Origin: an archaeon
Lineage (GTDB): Archaea; Iainarchaeota; Iainarchaeia; Iainarchaeales; Iainarchaeaceae
Direction: 5' to 3'
Assembly (NCBI GenBank): GCA_038046625.1
Contig: JBBSVV010000010.1
Span: 1-12,599 of the forward strand
Length of the DNA stretch: 12,599 nucleotides
Made by a program: the position numbers and the translations under genes
The notes under the pieces: generated by a model
The model's input: only the letters and a program-made list of their open reading frames with translations
Told to the model about the DNA's origin: nothing
The model's database searches: none
Shown here: positions 3,490 through 10,832 of the stretch, one piece after another
Numbering within the stretch: position 1 is the stretch's first letter
How the letters are laid out: each line of letters opens with the position of its first letter

Positions 3490-4569
3490 ATGAACAGGAC
3501 CATAATGCACATTGACCTTGATTACTTTTATGCGCAGCTCGAGGAGCTCCGCAAGCCTGAACTGAAGGGAAAGCCCGTTGTCGTGTGCATGTTCTCCGGA
3601 AGAACCCAGGATTCCGGCGCAGTTGCGACCGCGAATTACAAGGCCCGCGAATTCGGGGTTCATGCCGGAATGCCGATTGCATTTGCGAAGAGGAAAGCGC
3701 CGAACGCGGTTTTTTTGCCTGCCGACAGGGAGCATTACTCCGAGGTTTCCTCGCGCATAATGGATTTGCTCCGCGAATTCTCGGAAAAGTTCGAGCAGGT
3801 CGGCATTGACGAGGCGTATGTGGATGTTACCCGGCAAAGCGGCGGGAGCTTTCCGGAAGCCAGAAAAATTGCTGAAGGGGCGAAGAAAAAAATTCTCGAG
3901 GAGGAGAAGGTGACCTGCTCCGTCGGAATAGGGCCGAACAAATTGATTGCGAAAATGGCTTCTTCCGTGAAAAAACCGGATGGCCTGACGGTGATTGCGC
4001 CTGCACAAGTAACCGATTTTCTGCGCTCAAAAAGGATTTCTGACCTTCACGGGGTAGGAGAAAAAACAGCCGAACTGCTTAAGGAAAAGGGGATAAGCAA
4101 CATTCCGCAGCTGGCTCAGGCAAACGTTGCGGAACTGCAGGGGCTGTTCGGCGAGAACCGCGGCAGAATAATCCGTGAAAAGGCGCTTGGAATGGACAAT
4201 AGCGAGGTGGAGGAGCGTGAGAAGCAGCAGTATTCGCGCATCGCAACCCTCAAGGAAAATACCTCCGATTGTGAAAAAGTTTTTTCGGAATCAAAGGCGC
4301 TTGCCAGGGACCTCGCGGAAAAGGCCCTCAAGAACAGGGTTTCGTTCAAAACCGTTTCAATAATCCTGATTTCGGACAAATTGGAAACCGTGACGAGAAG
4401 CAAAACTCTCGAGGCCGCGACGCAGGAAGAGCACAAAATAATTGATATTGCGCGCGAATTGTTCACGGAATTTTTTGCGGCGCAAAAAGGGTTTGTTGCG
4501 CGCAGGTTCGGGCTTCGCATAAGCAATTTTGAGGAACCCAGAAAACAGAAGAGCCTTTTCGATTTTTGA
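3490..4569 (+). CDS. dinB: Y-family DNA polymerase IV (DinB/Dpo4)
   Basis: Motifs HIDLDYFYAQ, VATANYKAREFGVHAGMP, GIDEAYVD, SVGIGPNKLIAKMAS..KKPDG and HhH LHGVGEKT. C-terminal PCNA PIP-box QKSLFDF. Confidence 0.95.
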   Translation: MNRTIMHIDLDYFYAQLEELRKPELKGKPVVVCMFSGRTQDSGAVATANYKAREFGVHAGMPIAFAKRKAPNAVFLPADREHYSEVSSRIMDLLREFSEKFEQVGIDEAYVDVTRQSGGSFPEARKIAEGAKKKILEEEKVTCSVGIGPNKLIAKMASSVKKPDGLTVIAPAQVTDFLRSKRISDLHGVGEKTAELLKEKGISNIPQLAQANVAELQGLFGENRGRIIREKALGMDNSEVEEREKQQYSRIATLKENTSDCEKVFSESKALARDLAEKALKNRVSFKTVSIILISDKLETVTRSKTLEAATQEEHKIIDIARELFTEFFAAQKGFVARRFGLRISNFEEPRKQKSLFDF

Positions 4570-4614
4570 AAAAAAAGTTTTCGGCGGAGAAAAAAAATAT
4601 TTCCGCGCAAAAAT

Positions 4615-4950
4615 TCATGAATTCTTTTCCGCCATGTCGCCGATAATGGGCAACTTGTATTTTTCCTTGCTGTAGGCTTTGTACATCATTAATATCCAGA
4701 GCACAAGGGCTCCAAGGCCTACGAAAGGCAGGAGAATCCACCCTATTATGGTTATAGTGAGGATTATGTTCAGCACTATCACACCGATGAAAAGTATTGT
4801 GGACTGCATTGCGTGAAACCTGATGAACTTGTTGTCCTTCTCCATGAGAAGAAGTGCTATTCCCGTTATTGGGCCCAGCAGGTATGCCACCGCGCCCGCA
4901 ACGTTCTCCTCTAAGCCGATGGACGTTTTTGCTGTTGTTGCGTTAGCCAT
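4615..4950 (-). CDS. DUF4870-family small membrane protein
   Basis: Pattern GLEENVAGAVAYLLG...EKDNKFIRFHAMQS...MYKAY...YKLPIIG with three hydrophobic segments. SD AGGAGGT at 4958-4964 on the minus strand. Confidence 0.85.
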   Translation of the reverse strand: MANATTAKTSIGLEENVAGAVAYLLGPITGIALLLMEKDNKFIRFHAMQSTILFIGVIVLNIILTITIIGWILLPFVGLGALVLWILMMYKAYSKEKYKLPIIGDMAEKNS

Positions 4951-5055
4951 AAGTTTAACCTCCTTTCAAGTAGTTGTTGTATAAATCAGCGGTTTTGTGT
5001 TTTTATTTGTATGCGTTGGAGGTTTTGATACCAAAAACAATTTTTGAAGCCGCTT

Positions 5056-5073
5056 AATAGCCCGGCCCGGATT
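5056..5073 (-). repeat. Degenerate direct repeat of the tRNA-Gln 3' end (att-like site)
   Basis: aatagcccggcccggatt (5056-5073) versus aatagccccgcccggatt (6366-6383), 17/18 identical. It spans the T-loop end, T-stem 3' strand, acceptor 3' strand and discriminator. Confidence 0.75.
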
Positions 5074-5089
5074 TGTGGCAGGCACTAAT

Positions 5090-5311
5090 TCAAAGCAGTT
5101 TCAGGAATTCTTCCCTTGAAAGCCCGGTTTGTTTCAGGATGGAAAGCAAGGTACCTGGGACAATAACAATGTGGTTCGGGACAACCGCCCTCCTGAATGG
5201 CTCCTTACTTTCCCTTAGAATGAAATGCCCGCCGGTCTGATGGTCAACCTCGAACCCAGCTTTTTTCAAGGCCTTTATCACTTTGATGCCCGACAGAACC
5301 GGCAGTTTCAT
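5090..5311 (-). CDS. hicA: HicA-family toxin (mRNA interferase)
   Basis: MKLPVLSGIKVIKALKKAGFEVDHQTGGHFIL...VVPNH...GTLLSILKQTGLSREEFLKLL is the typical HicA pattern with the conserved His (GGH instead of GSH). Likely start is ATG 5311 (73 aa); the listed ORF starts at 5329. Confidence 0.9.
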   Translation of the reverse strand: MKLPVLSGIKVIKALKKAGFEVDHQTGGHFILRESKEPFRRAVVPNHIVIVPGTLLSILKQTGLSREEFLKLL

Positions 5312-5361
5312 CAAAACCACTAAATCCAAAAAAACTGAAAATAAAAGAAACCGGAATAATG

Positions 5362-5589
5362 TCAGGCTACCGAAACGGCATCGATTTCCACTTTTCTTTT
5401 GAACACTTTTTCTTCAGGATGTTTTTTTATGCTCTCCAAATAACCCTTGATTGCGTCTTTAATGTTCTTGAGAGCCTGAGCCCTTGTCTTGCCCTGGGAA
5501 ACGCATCCGGGCAGAGCCGGGATCTCGGCAACATACCAGCCTGTTTCTGCATCCTTGGCCAAAACAACTTTGTACTCCATATAAACCAT
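5362..5589 (-). CDS. hicB: HicB-family antitoxin (short form, no obvious DNA-binding domain)
   Basis: YKVVL..D.ETGWYVAEIPALPGCVSQGKTRAQALKNIKDAIKGYLE is the HicB core. It lies directly upstream of hicA on the same strand. Start is 5589 or 5580. Confidence 0.9.
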   Translation of the reverse strand: MVYMEYKVVLAKDAETGWYVAEIPALPGCVSQGKTRAQALKNIKDAIKGYLESIKKHPEEKVFKRKVEIDAVSVA

Positions 5590-5609
5590 AGAGATTAGCG
5601 CATCCGAAC

Positions 5610-5617
5610 TTTTTATA
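5610..5617 (-). promoter_or_regulatory. TATA-box candidate for hicBA
   Basis: Minus strand TATAAAAA about 20 nt upstream of ATG 5589. Confidence 0.45.
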
Positions 5618-5633
5618 GATTTGTTTTGGGAAT

Positions 5634-5644
5634 AAAAAAAGAAA
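5634..5644 (-). terminator. Oligo-T terminator candidate, probably the earlier tRNA-Gln terminator displaced by the cassette
   Basis: Minus strand TTTCTTTTTTT immediately follows the duplicated ATTCAGGCAGCC. Confidence 0.45.
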
Positions 5645-5705
5645 GGCTGCCTGAATAGCGGGTTATAGACAGCGTCATTTTTGGTTACTGTCCGTTGTAG
5701 AAGTT

Positions 5706-6248
5706 CTACTCTCGGTAACCTTTTACCGATACAATTTTTGCACCTTCCAATAAATAGTCATCCAAATATTGCCCTCCAAATGTCTCGTTTGTTTTGTACT
5801 GTGGTATTTTTGTTGTATTGCTAAGGTCAAATATGAATGAAAAATTTATACGCATTTTCTCTCCAATTGTTCCGTCTGAGGAAATGTTTTGCTTATAAGC
5901 ACTTAGTTCGGGAACCACTGGGTTGGAGCCACAATATAAGTAATTGATATTTTCACCTGTAGATTGACCCATATGGCATAGATAACTTCTAATATCATTT
6001 CCTTCAGTTGTGAATATCCACCCATTCTTGTTTTTGTGTGAAGGGAACACAAGGAATCTTCCTCCAGTTTGTCCTTCATGTATTTCATAGTTTTCTAAAC
6101 CATAGTATTGCAATGTTTCTTCATTAGAAGATGCTTGCTCAGGGGCAATTCCGGAATTAAGTTGTTGAGTACCATCTGGTTGATTTGGCTGGGTACTAAT
6201 GCATCCAAAAAATAAAAATAAAACTACTAAGTAAAATGCCGACTTCAT
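5706..6248 (-). CDS. Putative lipoprotein of unknown function (cassette passenger, 180 aa)
   Basis: The listed ORF 5706..6410 wrongly extends into the tRNA. Best start is ATG 6248, giving the signal peptide and lipobox MKSAFYLVVLFLFFGC followed by a Gln/Pro linker. A BRE/TATA-like CAAAAGCTTAAAG lies about 23 nt upstream. Confidence 0.75.
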   Translation of the reverse strand: MKSAFYLVVLFLFFGCISTQPNQPDGTQQLNSGIAPEQASSNEETLQYYGLENYEIHEGQTGGRFLVFPSHKNKNGWIFTTEGNDIRSYLCHMGQSTGENINYLYCGSNPVVPELSAYKQNISSDGTIGEKMRINFSFIFDLSNTTKIPQYKTNETFGGQYLDDYLLEGAKIVSVKGYRE

Positions 6249-6271
6249 TGTTGCATTATGCAAATATGCTA

Positions 6272-6284
6272 CTTTAAGCTTTTG
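6272..6284 (-). promoter_or_regulatory. BRE/TATA candidate for the cassette lipoprotein (leaderless)
   Basis: Minus strand CAAAAGCTTAAAG, 23 nt before ATG 6248. Confidence 0.45.
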
Positions 6285-6367
6285 CATTATTATACTCATC
6301 CAACGATTTAAGAAATTACGTAAAAGAATGCTCCAAATCCAACAATGTCTATAACCCGCTGCCTGAA

Positions 6368-6486
6368 TAGCCCCGCCCGGATTCGAACCGGGGTCTCGAC
6401 CTTGCTCCATTCTTCTTAATTTTTAAATCAAAAATCAACTTTAGAATCCCAGAGGGTCGAATCCTTGGCCACTAGACGACGGGGCT
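6368..6486 (-). tRNA. tRNA-Gln(CUG) with a 46-nt intron at position 37/38
   Basis: Minus strand AGCCCCG TC GTCTAGTGGCCAAGGAT T CGACC CT CTG G [intron] A GGTCG AGAC CCCGG TTCGAAT CCGGG CGGGGCT A. All stems pair, the A1-U72 pair is typical of archaeal tRNA-Gln, and CCA is not encoded. Exon 1 is 6449-6486; exon 2 is 6368-6402. Confidence 0.96.
6403..6448 (-). other. tRNA intron with a canonical bulge-helix-bulge motif
   Basis: Intron G-ATTCT-AAAGTTGATTTTTGATTTAAAAATTAAGA-AGAAT-GGAG-CA. Exon CUCU pairs with intron GGAG (4-bp central helix), 3-nt bulges are GG|G and CA|A, the outer helix is ATTCT/AGAAT, and there is an inner hairpin TTGATTTTT/AAAAATTAA. Confidence 0.92.
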
Positions 6487-7421
6487 ACTAAAACGTTCTT
6501 ATTAGCATCAGTTAACTTGGCTAATTTGACTGGATGCCTGAAATTAATCAATCTGGCAAACTTTAAAACACTATCCTTAGAGCGCAGTTCCACGGTATAT
6601 AAGGGAAGGAATTTCTCCGCTTTAAGCCATTGCCCGAACTTCGTTTCAATCCCAATAGAATTTAGCAACAATCTCACTTGGTCAATTATAACCTTGCTGG
6701 TACTAGCATACTTGACATAGCCTCTTTTAGTTATTGTTCCATCAGTGTCAAACAAGCCCTGCAAAAAAGCTTTTTTGACTTCAATAGCCGTTGAATCTAA
6801 TAGATTTTGAGGAACAAATATCCTGCTGCTCTTGAACCCATTGCAAACTCCAAAATAGCTTCTCAAAAACCAATGAAATACTTTGGAACAACACAATGAA
6901 ACATAACAATGCTCACTGGAAAGACGATGTATTTGGACTAAATCCAATTCCTTTCTAATTATACTGTCATAGAGTGCTCGATGCTCTAAATTATCAAAAA
7001 ACACTGCAACTCTCCAGTTACCTTTTTCATTTGAAATATTTCCTGCAAGAGAGCCATCACCAAGAATCACACCCACACAATAAGCCAAGTCAGGCGAAAT
7101 CTCTTTTGGAAACCTTAATTTATGCGGAGAATACTTGCAGCTTAGAAAAATTTCCTTTGAATCTATTCTTTGAACCATTTCCTTACGAAAATTCTCATTA
7201 CAAAGATTGAGAGTTTTATTTAAGTTCGCAAGAGAAATTGGCCTTCTGCCAAGTGTCCATTCCTTGGAAGCGTGATAACTTACCCCAATCAAACGTGACA
7301 CTTTTGGCGCTCCGCCTAACCTCAAAGCAATATCTTTTACTTCGGGAGCAATTCCATGCAACATTACATCGTTTTTTAGCCAATCAGACGGAGCATCAAA
7401 AATCGATAGTGAATTCTGCAT
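6441..7421 (-). CDS. Free-standing double-motif LAGLIDADG (DOD-type) homing endonuclease-like protein with an N-terminal HTH-like segment
   Basis: Two LAGLIDADG motifs, LAYCVGVILGDGSL and FLQGLFDTDGTI, and the DOD-type tail F..LINFRHPVK. HTH-like segment GGAPKVSRLIGVSYHASKEWTLGRRPIS. No intein splicing motifs. Start is ATG 7421 (TATA 22 nt upstream, 326 aa) or TTG 7481 (SD AGGTGG, 346 aa). Confidence 0.88.
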   Translation of the reverse strand: MQNSLSIFDAPSDWLKNDVMLHGIAPEVKDIALRLGGAPKVSRLIGVSYHASKEWTLGRRPISLANLNKTLNLCNENFRKEMVQRIDSKEIFLSCKYSPHKLRFPKEISPDLAYCVGVILGDGSLAGNISNEKGNWRVAVFFDNLEHRALYDSIIRKELDLVQIHRLSSEHCYVSLCCSKVFHWFLRSYFGVCNGFKSSRIFVPQNLLDSTAIEVKKAFLQGLFDTDGTITKRGYVKYASTSKVIIDQVRLLLNSIGIETKFGQWLKAEKFLPLYTVELRSKDSVLKFARLINFRHPVKLAKLTDANKNVLVAPSSSGQGFDPLGF

Positions 7422-7442
7422 GCAAGAATCACGCTTTGCGCG

Positions 7443-7457
7443 CTTTAAATAACTTTG
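7443..7457 (-). promoter_or_regulatory. BRE/TATA candidate for the LAGLIDADG gene (possibly also driving the tRNA)
   Basis: Minus strand CAAAGTTATTTAAAG; TTTAAA ends 22 nt before ATG 7421. Confidence 0.5.
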
Positions 7458-7477
7458 AGGGTTCATTGCCGGTGCGC

Positions 7478-7621
7478 TCAAACAACCACCTGAGCAAAAG
7501 TATAGCCGGCAAAAAATATTGCCGTATGAGAGCCGAAATCAATCAAACGCTCATCTGCTGTCAGCATATATAGCCCAAACGGAGCAACGCAAATCAAAGC
7601 CATGAAAAAGAAGGGAATCAT
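7478..7621 (-). CDS. 47-aa hydrophobic micro-protein (not in the ORF track)
   Basis: MIPFFFMALICVAPFGLYMLTADERLIDFGSHTAIFFAGYTFAQVVV*. The ATG overlaps the upstream stop (TAATG) and is preceded by SD-like GGAGGGG. Two hydrophobic stretches. Confidence 0.55.
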   Translation of the reverse strand: MIPFFFMALICVAPFGLYMLTADERLIDFGSHTAIFFAGYTFAQVVV

Positions 7622-7737
7622 TACAAATCCCCTCCAAACTGACTGAGAATCCAGATTTCCCTGTCAGAGAGAAACTCTGAATCTATTTCCTGGATTGCTT
7701 CCAGTTCTTCTATTGTTGGAATTTTGATTTGAACCAT
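7621..7737 (-). CDS. 38-aa acidic micro-protein (not in the ORF track)
   Basis: MVQIKIPTIEELEAIQEIDSEFLSDREIWILSQFGGDL*. Strong SD GGAGGTG (7745-7751) 7 nt upstream of the ATG. Confidence 0.6.
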   Translation of the reverse strand: MVQIKIPTIEELEAIQEIDSEFLSDREIWILSQFGGDL

Positions 7738-7744
7738 TCTTTGC

Positions 7745-7887
7745 CACCTCCGAAAAGAATGAATTTTTTCCGAAGACGGCTTGGGGCTTTCGCAGGCATT
7801 AAATCCTTTGCACCAAAAGCAAAGGTTCAGACGTGCGAAGGTTTAAGCCGAGAATGCCTAGACGTAGGAAAAAATTCGGCGGAGGTG
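7745..7887. ncRNA. Candidate structured RNA or structured leader, family unknown
   Basis: Complementary pairs: 7745-7752/7880-7887 (8 bp), 7761-7771/7867-7877 (11 bp), 7777-7782/7845-7850, 7789-7794/7834-7839, 7805-7811/7819-7825 (7 bp), plus a crossing pair 7794-7800/7853-7859 (7 bp). Confidence 0.55.
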
Positions 7888-7919
7888 TACTAGCTAGAAG
7901 TAAATCAAATTAGAAAAAA

Positions 7920-8147
7920 CTATATTTTTTGCCCTGGCATTTGCCATCGCATATTAGAGTTCAACTTTTGGCGTTCCAGTTCCCTTTCATCCATAAATTT
8001 ACCTAAAAAAGCAAACACACCTATGGAGAGTAAAATGCTTCCAGCTAGCATAGGAATTGAATCTGGTTGTGTGATGAGAAAACCGCCTATAATGGCAAAC
8101 GCTATTGAGGCAGCATATGGATTATCAATATTTTTTGGAAATTCCAT
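7920..8147 (-). CDS. Small two-helix membrane protein, unknown function
   Basis: 75 aa with two hydrophobic segments and a charged tail. AT-rich, with TTTAAAAA about 25 nt upstream of the ATG. Confidence 0.65.
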   Translation of the reverse strand: MEFPKNIDNPYAASIAFAIIGGFLITQPDSIPMLAGSILLSIGVFAFLGKFMDERELERQKLNSNMRWQMPGQKI

Positions 8148-8236
8148 AGTATTACACTATTCAAATAAAATTTTTAAATTCTACTTTTGGCGGCTTTGCT
8201 AAGCCTTATTAACCAAAAAAGCCCTTAGTTTTGCGT

Positions 8237-8479
8237 ATGGCCAAGCGCAACGAGAGCATCGAGGGGCTGAAGCAGATTGCCGCGAAAAACAAGCAGCACG
8301 AGCTCGAAAAAATTCTTGGAAACATGGTTGTGAAACTGCGCGAAATCGAGGAAATAAGGGCACAGATAGAAAAGGAGCAGTACAGCGGCGGCATCCCGAT
8401 TGAAAAGTCAAGGGAAATGCTTGAGGAAATAAAGGTGCCGAGCCTCGCAATGATAATGGAAGAAAAAAAGAAGCGCTGA
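8237..8479 (+). CDS. Small charged helical hypothetical protein
   Basis: MAKRNESIEGLKQ... (80 aa from ATG 8237). TTATTAA lies about 25 nt upstream, and the gene ends 6 nt before the DUF192 gene. Confidence 0.7.
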   Translation: MAKRNESIEGLKQIAAKNKQHELEKILGNMVVKLREIEEIRAQIEKEQYSGGIPIEKSREMLEEIKVPSLAMIMEEKKKR

Positions 8480-8485
8480 TTCAAA

Positions 8486-8839
8486 ATGCCACTAATTAAT
8501 TCAGCGAGCGGAAAAACCGTTTCTAAAAATGTTCATTTTGCAAAAACTTTTTTTCAAAAATTTAAGGGTTTAATGTTTGAGCGCGCAGATAATTTTGATT
8601 ACGCGCTCGTTTTTGAACTGCCCCGTGAAACGCGAATCGGCGCGAGCGTGCACATGTTCTTCGTTTTTTTTCCTATTGGAATAATTTTTTTGGATTCGGG
8701 GAAAAAAGTCGTTGATAAGGCTGTTTTGAAGCCGTGGATGCTGAATTATACTCCAAAGAAAGCCGCAAAGTATTTTGTCGAGCTACAGCCCGAAAAAATT
8801 TCAGAAATAAAATTAGGGGAAAAGCTTGAGTGGAAATAA
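8486..8839 (+). CDS. DUF192 (UPF0127) family protein
   Basis: Motifs AKTFFQKFKGLMF, VHMFFVFFPIGIIFLD, LKPW and AKYFVEL; 117 aa. Confidence 0.9.
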   Translation: MPLINSASGKTVSKNVHFAKTFFQKFKGLMFERADNFDYALVFELPRETRIGASVHMFFVFFPIGIIFLDSGKKVVDKAVLKPWMLNYTPKKAAKYFVELQPEKISEIKLGEKLEWK

Positions 8840-8857
8840 CAGGATAAATAAAAAAAG

Positions 8858-8880
8858 TTTCGGGAAAAATTTTCCCGAAA
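8858..8880. terminator. Perfect inverted repeat between convergent genes; bidirectional terminator candidate
   Basis: tttcgggaaaa-a-ttttcccgaaa, with an A7 tract at 8850-8856 (T7 on the minus strand). Confidence 0.5.
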
Positions 8881-8882
8881 AA

Positions 8883-9248
8883 TCATTGCGTCGTTCCGAG
8901 ATTGAATTCCTGGCGCGTTCCGTCGGGGCCTATCAGTACCATTGAGACGTTTTTGCCATCCTTGTCGAAGTAGTACTCTACAGTGGCCTGGCCGTCCTCG
9001 GTATTCATTTGGTAGTTTGCTTTGCACCTTCCATCAGCCTGCACGCCTTCAATTGTATAGTTCGCATTTCCCTGCGGACCCGCTGCGTTCCATTGCGCTC
9101 CGGGAGTGCACCAGCCTGAAGTAAGGCCTGTATTTGTTGTGACCGTTGTGCCATCCGGGCCGACATATGTGCTTGTCCCGGGAGCTGCGCAGCCGGCAAG
9201 TACAACTAAAAGGGATAAAGTAGCAATCGAAAATAATGTTGTGTTCAA
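8883..9248 (-). CDS. Putative lipoprotein, unknown function
   Basis: TTG start with SD GGAGGTGA. Signal peptide ends in the lipobox VLAGC, and two further Cys are present. TTATAAAG promoter candidate near 9293-9300. Confidence 0.8.
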   Translation of the reverse strand: MNTTLFSIATLSLLVVLAGCAAPGTSTYVGPDGTTVTTNTGLTSGWCTPGAQWNAAGPQGNANYTIEGVQADGRCKANYQMNTEDGQATVEYYFDKDGKNVSMVLIGPDGTRQEFNLGTTQ

Positions 9249-9371
9249 TTTTTCACCTCCAAAAAAGCAATATAGAGATTGACGCCCTGCAGCTTTATAA
9301 TTTTGACCATTTAGGAAGGATTAAAAAAAGTAACACCCATTATTCGTTGATTGACGAAGTGTGTGTTTGTG

Positions 9372-10832
9372 ATGCCTCGAAAAGCCATTTTTGATTCGGA
9401 AAGAACAGCCGAAATGCTCGGCTGGGCAATCTACAGGCCAAAAAACAAGGTAAAAACGGTTTCTGAAAACGAATTGAGGGAGATTGCAGAGCTTGAAAAC
9501 TCCGAAAGGCTCTACATTGTGAAGAGGCTGCCCGAACTGAGTTCAGCGGAGGCAGAACTCGCCGCTGAAATTACGCGCAGGTTCCTTGAATCAAAAGGAA
9601 AGAGGCGCGAAACAACACTGAAGCAGGAAATGGAGGAGCACTGCAGAAGCCTGAACATCATTCTTGACGAAAGGCAGCGGCAATACATGCCAATTCTTCT
9701 ACATAATTGTGTTGCGGCTGCGGGAATCCTTTCCGAATTGCTCCAAGATGAAAACCTCGAGGAAATAGCGGTTACCGGAACAGGAAAAGCAAAACCGATT
9801 TTTGTTTTCGATTCGAGCTTTGGGTGGCTCGCAACCAACATTTACTTCTCCAGCGCGGACAAGGTTAGGCAGGTCGCGAACGCAATGGCATCGCACACAG
9901 GAAGAAGGATTACAATGCAGAAGCCATCACTGAACGCCGTCCTGAATGACGGCTCAAGAATGAACGCGTGCATCGAGCCTGCCGCATTCACGGGACCGAC
10001 AATAACAATAAGGAAGTTCAGGAAGAGCAGGTTCACGCCCTCCAATCTTATTTCTTTGGGGAGCGTCGGGGCCGAAGAAATGGCTTTGCTCTGGATGGCG
10101 ATGCAGAGCGACTGCTCAATACTGGTTTGCGGCAACACCGGCTCTGGAAAAACCACCCTGCTGAATTCTCTCCTGAACTTCGTGCCAAAAAACGAGAGGA
10201 TTGTTTCCGTGGAGGAAACGCCCGAAATAGTTGTTCCGCATCCGCATTTCGTGAAGCTCAGCACGGTTGATGGAATCGAGATAGGCATGCAGGAACTCAT
10301 AGTGAATACGCTCAGAATGAGGCCGGACAGGGTAATTGTGGGAGAAGTCAGGGAAAAAGGCGAGGCAAAGGCATTCATGGACACAATACTCGCGGGCCAG
10401 GGAAAGGGCACTTACGCAACTTTTCATGCACAGTCCGCCCTTGAAGCGGTCGCAAGGTTGCGGGCATTAGGAATACTCGAAATTGATGCCGCATCCATAG
10501 ACCTCATAGTGACGCAGAAAAGATGGACGGAAAAACATGGCGCCAATTTTCTGGAGCGGAGGGCGCTTGTCGAAATATGCGAACCGCAAATCGTGAAAGG
10601 CGGGCTTTCGCTCAACAGGCTTTTTTCGGCGCACGGGTTCGGGAAAAAAGAAAAAGGAATTGTGCGCAAAAGTTCGCGCGTGAATGAAAAAATATGCAGG
10701 ACTTTCGGCCTCGCGCCTGACGGAATCCGGAAAGAGATATCAAAAAGGGCGGAGTTCCTGAACAAAATTTCCGGAAAAAACTGGGGAGAATACCTTGATG
10801 AAATCAATGGATACTGCAATTCGGAAACTTGA
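9372..10832 (+). CDS. Type II/IV secretion system / type IV pilus assembly ATPase (VirB11/CpaF/TadA/ArlI family)
   Basis: LLQDENLEEI, ITIRKF, Walker A GNTGSGKT, Asp box VSVEETPE, LRMRPDRVIVGEVR (Walker B) and His box TFHA. The start is uncertain (9351, 9372 or 9414). Confidence 0.92.
   Translation: MPRKAIFDSERTAEMLGWAIYRPKNKVKTVSENELREIAELENSERLYIVKRLPELSSAEAELAAEITRRFLESKGKRRETTLKQEMEEHCRSLNIILDERQRQYMPILLHNCVAAAGILSELLQDENLEEIAVTGTGKAKPIFVFDSSFGWLATNIYFSSADKVRQVANAMASHTGRRITMQKPSLNAVLNDGSRMNACIEPAAFTGPTITIRKFRKSRFTPSNLISLGSVGAEEMALLWMAMQSDCSILVCGNTGSGKTTLLNSLLNFVPKNERIVSVEETPEIVVPHPHFVKLSTVDGIEIGMQELIVNTLRMRPDRVIVGEVREKGEAKAFMDTILAGQGKGTYATFHAQSALEAVARLRALGILEIDAASIDLIVTQKRWTEKHGANFLERRALVEICEPQIVKGGLSLNRLFSAHGFGKKEKGIVRKSSRVNEKICRTFGLAPDGIRKEISKRAEFLNKISGKNWGEYLDEINGYCNSET

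Follow-up and report, generated by a model that had tools for sequence, protein, structure and literature searches.

A LAGLIDADG endonuclease gene that runs into a tRNA-Gln(CUG) gene in an archaeon of the Iainarchaeales: a probable member of a cassette family docking on tRNA genes

The stretch of DNA analysed here (the window) comprises 12,599 nucleotides (nt) of contig JBBSVV010000010.1 from an archaeon of the order Iainarchaeales (assembly GCA_038046625.1), and it includes a free-standing LAGLIDADG endonuclease gene whose open reading frame (ORF) runs into the tRNA-Gln(CUG) gene that follows it on the same strand. The last 15 codons of the ORF correspond to the 5' exon of the tRNA, and the TAA at 6441-6443 occupies bases 6-8 of the tRNA intron. 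This arrangement was described in an initial annotation made from the letters of the sequence, in which the coordinates were exact and the peptide tail that splicing alone would produce was correctly given, as can be read straight from the sequence. The explanation favoured here, with moderate confidence, is that the window carries a cassette belonging to a tRNA-docking LAGLIDADG family of DPANN archaea, bound in this case to tRNA-Gln(CUG), with the overlap as a by-product, an entry point inside the tRNA and later erosion of the element.

A scan of GTDB species genomes yielded 17 full-length orthologous loci (L009-L025, 39-57% identity), which make 18 together with the window, and a tRNA-Gln(CUG) gene lies directly downstream on the same strand in all 18. 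In 15 of these loci the ORF ends 2-46 nt within the tRNA, and in L022 the stop covers just the first 2 nt of the tRNA. The initial annotation had regarded homologues with their own stop before the tRNA as contrary to its proposal, and three were found (L017 by 1 nt, L024 by 12 nt and L011 by 34 nt); the place of the stop is not conserved. The genome of the window (about 1 Mb in 57 contigs) has 850 open frames of at least 200 amino acids (aa), and nine of them end between -130 and +60 nt from the start of a same-strand tRNA. Six of these nine are LAGLIDADG frames; the non-LAGLIDADG frames contribute 3 of 843, all with gaps of 29-52 nt. Seven free-standing LAGLIDADG frames are present in this genome, and six of them end -47 to +9 nt from a same-strand tRNA start, adjoining the tRNAs for Gln, Leu-UAG, Gly-UCC, Gly-CCC, Arg-UCG and an Ala-type tRNA, while the seventh (contig C5) adjoins none. 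The association of homologues with tRNA genes that the initial annotation had proposed to look for is therefore recurrent. About ten further LAGLIDADG domains are contained in frames of 650-1300 aa (intein-type), an unusually high load for a 1-Mb genome.

An order-wide search revealed that 98 of 151 genomes have some match to the nuclease. The first 40 non-orthologous matches listed whose frames were uninterrupted by stops and 230-470 aa long were taken as a sample of paralogues, which was reduced to 39 because one frame runs off its contig. A tRNA on either strand adjoins 35 of the 39. In 28 cases it is a same-strand tRNA at the end of the frame, found by ARAGORN within +-60 nt (17) or in a deeper overlap (4), or assigned by eye (7); about five of the by-eye tRNAs have some Rfam support, mostly matches to the clan of transfer-messenger RNA below the gathering score, and L114 has none. 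A second architecture was observed in 7 of the 39 (L095, L117, L120, L124, L125, L126 and L130, six with Rfam support), in which the 3' end of the ORF abuts or overlaps a tRNA on the opposite strand. Among the remaining paralogues, one lies inside a 16S rRNA gene and three have no RNA gene nearby. A chance overlap, that is, an ordinary gene without a stop before the next gene, could be expected in a genome as small and dense as this one, where three unrelated long frames come within 29-52 nt of a downstream tRNA, but it is contradicted by the counts obtained for the orthologous loci, the own-genome paralogues and the sampled relatives, and is considered extremely improbable.

The open frame at 6441-7481 of the minus strand counts 346 aa from a TTG and has the C-terminal end ...NVLVAPSSSGQGFDPLGF before its stop. 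The ATG at 7421 is the likely start of the nuclease gene, because the stored gene call of 326 aa (P0002) starts there and 21 homologues align from there. The ORF matched Pfam family PF14528 (LAGLIDADG_3) with an E value of 1.4e-15, and each of its two motifs, VILGDGSL and LQGLFDTDG, has a catalytic acidic residue. Residues G141, D142, G143, D245, D247 and G248, which include the catalytic Asp of both motifs, are invariant across 22 aligned sequences. An AlphaFold2 model built on the homologue alignment (predicted local distance difference test, pLDDT, 86.6; predicted template modelling score, pTM, 0.84) has the alpha-beta-beta-alpha-beta-beta-alpha fold twice, and its best Foldseek matches are PI-PfuI (E 1.3e-10), the TliVMA intein nuclease and I-DmoI (E 2e-8), with template modelling scores of 0.71-0.77 against the I-DmoI chains when normalised to I-DmoI length. 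By sequence and model, the 326-aa protein is a LAGLIDADG endonuclease of the two-motif monomer type, and nuclease activity of the product would be expected from its residues. The N-terminal domain includes confidently modelled helices at residues 45-107, and a Pfam scan of this domain gave no family at E <= 1. One Logan contig spans positions 6369-9000 with no differences; it may stem from the source sample and is not independent support.

The tRNA at 6368-6486 was not detected by default ARAGORN or by Rfam at the gathering score. When introns were allowed, ARAGORN placed a tRNA at c[6367,6487], interrupted by an intron of 46 nt. In the minimum-free-energy fold of 6368-6486 (z = -2.9; none of 200 shuffles as stable), 3-nt bulges (GGG and CAA) flank the 4-bp helix CUCU/GGAG in a bulge-helix-bulge that has AUUCU/AGAAU as outer helix. 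This canonical fold places the intron at position 37/38 and gives the anticodon CUG (Gln). The cloverleaf, the CUG anticodon after bulge-helix-bulge splicing and the A1-U72 pair were all found. The typing as Glu(CTC) proposed by ARAGORN has been rejected since the fold gives CUG and the intron-less orthologous genes are typed Gln(CTG); a tRNA-Glu(CTC) is encoded separately on contig C7 of the same genome. The interior of the window tRNA (D-loop, anticodon arm CGACC/GGUCG and 37/38 intron) matches that of genome G146 (L013), and differs from that of the same-genus genome G104 (L089), which has a D-arm intron and the arm ACAGC, while the T-arm matches its own genus. These mixed affinities suggest gene conversion inside the window tRNA.

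Of the 151 genomes of the order, 22 have an orthologue of the nuclease (E <= 1e-39). These genomes are spread over different families, and several of the orthologues are split or have stops (G086, G116, G008 and G035). The fate of the locus was followed by locating tRNA-Gln genes through a 5'-end pattern in 21 genomes of the same family (f1) and reading 30 further loci. The tRNA-Gln(CUG) loci of the family comprise five with an intact gene, nine with a remnant of its 3' end (two of them, in G023 and G129, degenerate and assigned by eye from the alignment) and five, in four genomes, that are empty. The nine relatives with a remnant retain just the last ~90 nt of the gene and the tRNA. Genome G104, with flanks 92-95% identical, lacks window positions 6588-8194 and keeps 101 nt of the 3' end of the gene plus the tRNA. 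Neither gene nor remnant was found at any of the 16 tRNA-Gln(UUG) loci of the family, despite their near-identical first ~25 nt. The comparison with relatives lacking the ORF, suggested in the initial annotation, has thus uncovered both eroded and empty loci, a presence/absence polymorphism at one homologous site of the kind by which a homing endonuclease gene is recognised.

The remnants also bear on how the tRNA is transcribed. The block that starts with the SVLKFA codons (GATAGTGTTTTAAAGTTTGCC) and reaches the tRNA is common to all 14 gene-bearing or remnant loci of the family, and the TTTTAAAG box within it is kept in all nine gene-less remnants. In at least seven of these, the resemblance to the gene breaks off about 5-12 nt upstream of TTTTAAAG, and the flanks beyond are unrelated. 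Because the remnants end just upstream of this box, we infer that TTTTAAAG is an independent promoter of the tRNA situated inside the codons of the nuclease; from its position, a tRNA leader of about 50 nt is predicted. Deletion pressure halted by a transcription factor B recognition element and TATA box (BRE/TATA) would give remnant ends of this kind. In the paralogues of the same genome, TATA-like boxes (by eye) lie at -47 to -23 from the tRNA, within the last ~15 codons, and gene-less tRNA-Gln genes of other organisms, found in the four DNA runs described below, have TTTAAAAG-type boxes at about -30 to -23.

The nuclease gene has promoter elements of its own. A TTTAA-type box is found at the same place in the aligned upstream regions of the orthologues, which agrees with the good TATA box that had been noted before the endonuclease ATG, and the mRNA would be leaderless. 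The exact CACCGGCA 8-mer lies upstream of six of the seven free-standing LAGLIDADG ORFs of the genome, including the tRNA-less ORF of contig C5. It is not specific to LAGLIDADG ORFs, with 64 genome copies versus 25.6 expected (2.5-fold over-represented), and may be a general operator or promoter element. A cassette remnant was also observed before the tRNA-Leu(GAG) gene in contig C15 of the same genome (~13270-13373), where the final ~20 codons of a LAGLIDADG gene of the Arg type (..SLEQRRQILKGLLSPSSFYS and stop) are attached to GCGCCGGCAATG and the tRNA follows directly.

According to the initial annotation, the nuclease mRNA and the pre-tRNA may form one transcript (from the promoter at about 7447), and maturation of the tRNA by RNase P and splicing would remove the stop codon and limit expression of the nuclease. 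In favour of this proposal are the lack of any terminator or stop between ORF and tRNA, the 15 of 18 loci with a stop inside the tRNA and the presence in the genome of both RNase P RNA and the splicing endonuclease. Read-through from the nuclease promoter into the tRNA is likely anyway. Upstream elements also persist in two remnants: in G079 the last 59 codons and the tRNA are joined to the CACCGGCA motif and a TATA-like box, and before tRNA-Leu(GAG) a sequence close to the motif (GCGCCGGCA) is still present. Against it, seven of the nine family remnants lack the upstream promoter and keep ~90 nt from TTTTAAAG, the tRNA being presumably still expressed; three orthologues stop before the tRNA; the paralogues have the TATA-like boxes close to their tRNAs mentioned above; and the reading frame and the stop place vary, which indicates no conserved switch. 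The tRNA is probably independent of the nuclease promoter, and the single-transcript model, weakened by the remnants that end at TTTTAAAG, is regarded as unlikely. A tRNA start inside the ORF had been named beforehand as an outcome that would count against that model; the predicted internal promoter points to such a start.

The variation of frame is visible in the peptides themselves. The orthologues read the tRNA in three frames, with tails ending in ..SPVV in seven loci, ..APSSSGQ.. in five and ..AP in two, and the same types were seen in protein database matches. In the AlphaFold2 model the tail of the window protein (residues 332-346) is predicted to be disordered and, taken together with the three frames, it looks like a by-product. 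Adjacency to the tRNA is conserved across the orthologues, and the tail peptide and the stop site are not. Of the nuclease ORF, the final 8 bases, TAA included, fall in the bulge-helix-bulge intron, and the rest is 5' of it; the ORF does not lie inside an intron and the gene is not an archaeal intron-encoded homing endonuclease gene.

The cassette would thus begin with the CACCGGCA motif and its own TATA box, followed by the nuclease gene and a doubly used 3' end, in which the last ~35 codons would also serve as tRNA promoter (TTTTAAAG at the SVLKFA codons) and leader. The frame would simply continue into the tRNA until a stop occurs, the read-through of the 5' exon and the intronic stop being by-products of compaction with no designed switch.

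The way in which the element entered is suggested by orphan pieces of tRNA. In L025, 23 nt of a tRNA-Gln 5' end lie 4 nt before the CACCGG motif that marks the cassette's left edge, and this stump differs from the working tRNA copy at 2-3 positions. In L018, a 5' stump of 20 nt pairs with a 3' stump. Both stumps end at about tRNA positions 20-23, which suggests insertion within the tRNA gene, with a replacement 5' part, and not homing to the conserved tRNA 5' boundary as had been proposed. The element would probably have entered through a cut within the tRNA gene at about positions 20-28 and supplied a replacement 5' part of the tRNA, leaving an orphan 5' stump that later decays; vertical inheritance would follow, and then erosion by deletion to the part needed by the tRNA. 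In a comparison of four DNA runs with the window, no contig joining across a gene-less form of the locus was obtained, and the matching sequences were other organisms' tRNA-Gln genes only, diverging at 6487/6493.

Introns are distributed unevenly among the 18 gene-bearing loci, with a D-arm intron in seven, a 37/38 intron in seven (both in four) and none in eight. The D-arm intron is homologous among loci. Its fold is a bulge-helix-bulge that puts the splice site after GGCCA, no more than 2-3 nt from where the stumps end. Within family f1, this intron was found in 3 of 5 intact, 7 of 9 remnant, 0 of 5 empty and 0 of 16 UUG loci. The collaborative homing considered in the initial annotation, between the nuclease and the small intron, may hold in part: the 37/38 intron is not required, as eight orthologous loci are intron-less, and the D-arm intron does co-occur with the element. 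The intron-less D-loop GGCCAAGGAT is absent from all 18 gene-bearing loci and present in four of the 14 family loci whose gene is eroded or missing (partly by eye). As the genomes are related, the intron and D-loop counts are hints and not tests. It is possible, and is put forward tentatively, that the recognition site is the stretch of tRNA-Gln(CUG) from the D-loop to the anticodon loop, and that D-arm and 37/38 introns and D-loop variants are immunity alleles travelling with the element. The unoccupied UUG loci, with their near-identical first ~25 nt, and the coincidence of the D-arm splice site with the stump ends are further hints in this direction. A 'giant intron', formed by pairing of the left-end CGGCA with the D-arm TGCCG (by eye), has been discarded because the variants in L010 and L025 are uncompensated; it is also unneeded, as the fold of the small intron itself already explains the conserved GCCG.

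Several points weigh against a mobile cassette that enters tRNA genes. No stump is present in the window, where the best local match to the 5' exon scored 18 (shuffle mean 16.9, maximum 24), and stumps support entry by insertion in just 2 of the 18 orthologous loci. An intact tRNA at the right end of the cassette would restore a target lying inside the tRNA, and loci without an intron or a D-loop change leave the avoidance of self-cutting unexplained. The promoter inside the ORF gains nothing from an A/T-rich 8-mer test passed by 16 of 18 loci, which is non-discriminating in an A/T-rich coding region, and the remnants come from related genomes that may share deletions. Seven tRNAs of the paralogue survey are by-eye assignments. 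Within the family, the identity of the nuclease (50-57%) is the same as that of the neighbouring syntenic ATPase (47-55%), which gives no indication of recent lateral spread, and the gene seems to have been inherited vertically there. An intact gene that persists for long by vertical descent would fit a host function as well.

Such a function is the core of another explanation, a domesticated and no longer mobile LAGLIDADG protein, vertically inherited, with a host role at the tRNA-Gln(CUG) locus, for instance DNA binding or regulation through the N-terminal domain. The synteny of the ATPase gene with the nuclease locus across four genera, the nuclease identity that tracks that of the ATPase, the conservation of the 105-aa N-terminal domain, the WhiA-type non-nuclease LAGLIDADG proteins among the fold matches and a motif upstream of the gene that could be an operator are all in line with it. 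A domesticated protein is harder to reconcile with the invariance of both catalytic Asp residues, with 9 remnants and 5 empty sites among 19 family loci, with orthologues in just 22 of 151 genomes (some of them broken) and with the orphan stumps. Whole paralogous families are moreover tied to other tRNAs, the pattern of selfish elements, and domestication is considered quite unlikely. The tRNA-docking cassette is retained as the better account of the locus.

The coordinates of the features discussed are given in Table 1. The 38-aa ORF directly upstream of the nuclease is also present in L009, L011 and L023, no Pfam family was found for either of the two small upstream ORFs, and both possibly travel with the element.

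Table 1. Features of the nuclease and tRNA locus (window coordinates).
Feature	Position	Strand	Remarks
tRNA-Gln(CUG) gene	6368..6486	-	5' exon 6449-6486, 3' exon 6368-6402
Bulge-helix-bulge intron, 46 nt, position 37/38	6403..6448	-	Intron-aware ARAGORN and minimum-free-energy fold
LAGLIDADG endonuclease ORF	6441..7421	-	326 aa plus TAA; Pfam LAGLIDADG_3
tRNA-coded C-terminal tail VAPSSSGQGFDPLGF	6444..6488	-	Residues 332-346, pLDDT < 50
Two-motif LAGLIDADG core	6489..7106	-	P0001 residues 126-331; Pfam, alignment, AlphaFold2 model
TTTTAAAG box inside ORF	6561..6568	-	V-L-K codons of SVLKFA; -82..-75 from tRNA; putative promoter
N-terminal helical domain, possibly DNA-binding	7107..7421	-	P0001 residues 21-125; conserved in orthologues
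TATA-like box TTATTTAAAG	7443..7452	-	~26 nt before ATG 7421
CACCGGCA motif	7467..7474	-	~15 nt upstream of nuclease TATA box; conserved in orthologue alignment
Two small ORFs (38 aa ending ..DREIWILSQFGGDL; 47 aa hydrophobic)	7478..7737	-	Upstream of nuclease

The tRNA is surrounded by a low-GC, variable island (window 4500-9500). Relative to window 5017-5047, G104 has an extra 1.1 kb (L089, contig C41, 860-2007) bracketed by two copies of a tRNA-Gln 3' end with 100% and 87.5% match to window 6358-6394, and it lacks window 5660-6359. A 234-aa frame (5706-6410, minus strand) opens in the tRNA intron, crosses the 3' exon and is absent in G104; a later ATG, ahead of the lipoprotein-like sequence MKSAFYLVVLFLFFGC, probably marks its true start, and no Pfam family was found for the frame. 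Other genes of the island are a HicA-like toxin-antitoxin ORF (5090-5329, minus strand; Pfam PF07927, E 3.9e-13) and a divergent 79-aa ORF (5359-5598) without a family. The stretch GGGTTATAG(A/G)CAT just after the tRNA (window 6330-6365) is conserved between the window and L009, two loci only, and could encode a small hydrophobic peptide. A short hairpin repeat of the type CTTTTCTTTT..loop..AAAAGAAAAG adjoins many tRNA genes on either side and lies inside some 37/38 introns, often flanked by duplicated tRNA ends; it was seen in the own genome (for example at C3 5782-5854, C7 20707-20914 and C21 6825-6994) and in L018, L019, L025, L138 and L157.

Archaeal LAGLIDADG enzymes are known from rRNA introns and inteins. 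The window protein shares with I-DmoI, I-Tsp061I and PI-PfuI the fold, the two-motif monomer form and an archaeal host with bulge-helix-bulge splicing, and differs in lying outside an intron or intein, in its extra N-terminal domain of ~105 aa and in its putative target, which is a tRNA gene and not an rRNA or protein gene. In the collaborative homing of F-CphI and psbA, a free-standing gene is reportedly paired with an ORF-less intron. An adjoining ORF-less intron may likewise protect the carrier allele here, whereas F-CphI is a phage enzyme with an Endo VII-type catalytic motif and its partner a group I intron instead of a bulge-helix-bulge intron.

The closest parallels in entry are found elsewhere. 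The mobile ORFs (mORFs) of fungal mitochondria (Allomyces atp6; Glomus atp6, atp9, cox2 and nad3) carry a substitute gene end (PMC3630166). As in the proposed cassette, a LAGLIDADG ORF inserted in a gene without an intron brings the replacement end, sometimes lacks its own stop and leaves the native end as an adjoining duplicate; a similar duplicate was found in L025 and L018, and none in the window. Here, unlike in the mORFs, the host gene is a tRNA of an archaeal chromosome, and what is replaced would be its 5' end along with a promoter predicted within the nuclease codons. T4 SegB, a homing endonuclease of a phage tRNA gene cluster, is likewise free-standing beside its target, a tRNA gene region, but it is a phage GIY-YIG enzyme (PMC2330249) whose ORF is not known to overlap a tRNA. 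Insertion sequences bearing homing endonucleases are described in rRNA genes of bacteria of the candidate phyla radiation (CPR), where, as in the present case, ultra-small uncultured prokaryotes have stable-RNA genes crowded by LAGLIDADG-type elements; those lie inside bacterial rRNA genes (PMC11270868), in contrast to elements set against archaeal tRNA genes and sharing sequence with them. No description of LAGLIDADG genes docked on archaeal tRNA genes was found in the literature searched, subscription journals and supplements being outside its scope, and the pattern appears to be undescribed.

A large family of tRNA-docking nucleases would represent a new route for a selfish gene into an essential gene without an intron or intein, one in which the nuclease shares codons with the predicted tRNA promoter, the leader and the 5' end of the tRNA, and sometimes leaves tRNA stumps. 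It explains mis-annotated tRNAs, such as that of the window, and offers new predicted nucleases that have long sites and whose natural targets would lie in conserved tRNA genes. The family also provides testable material on the odd positions of archaeal tRNA introns and on the protection of tRNA genes from mobile elements by introns. If the tentative idea of travelling immunity alleles were true, tRNA-docking homing endonucleases would create and spread non-canonical archaeal tRNA introns, and the notion of introns and splits as a shield of tRNA genes against mobile DNA would gain its first concrete selective agent.

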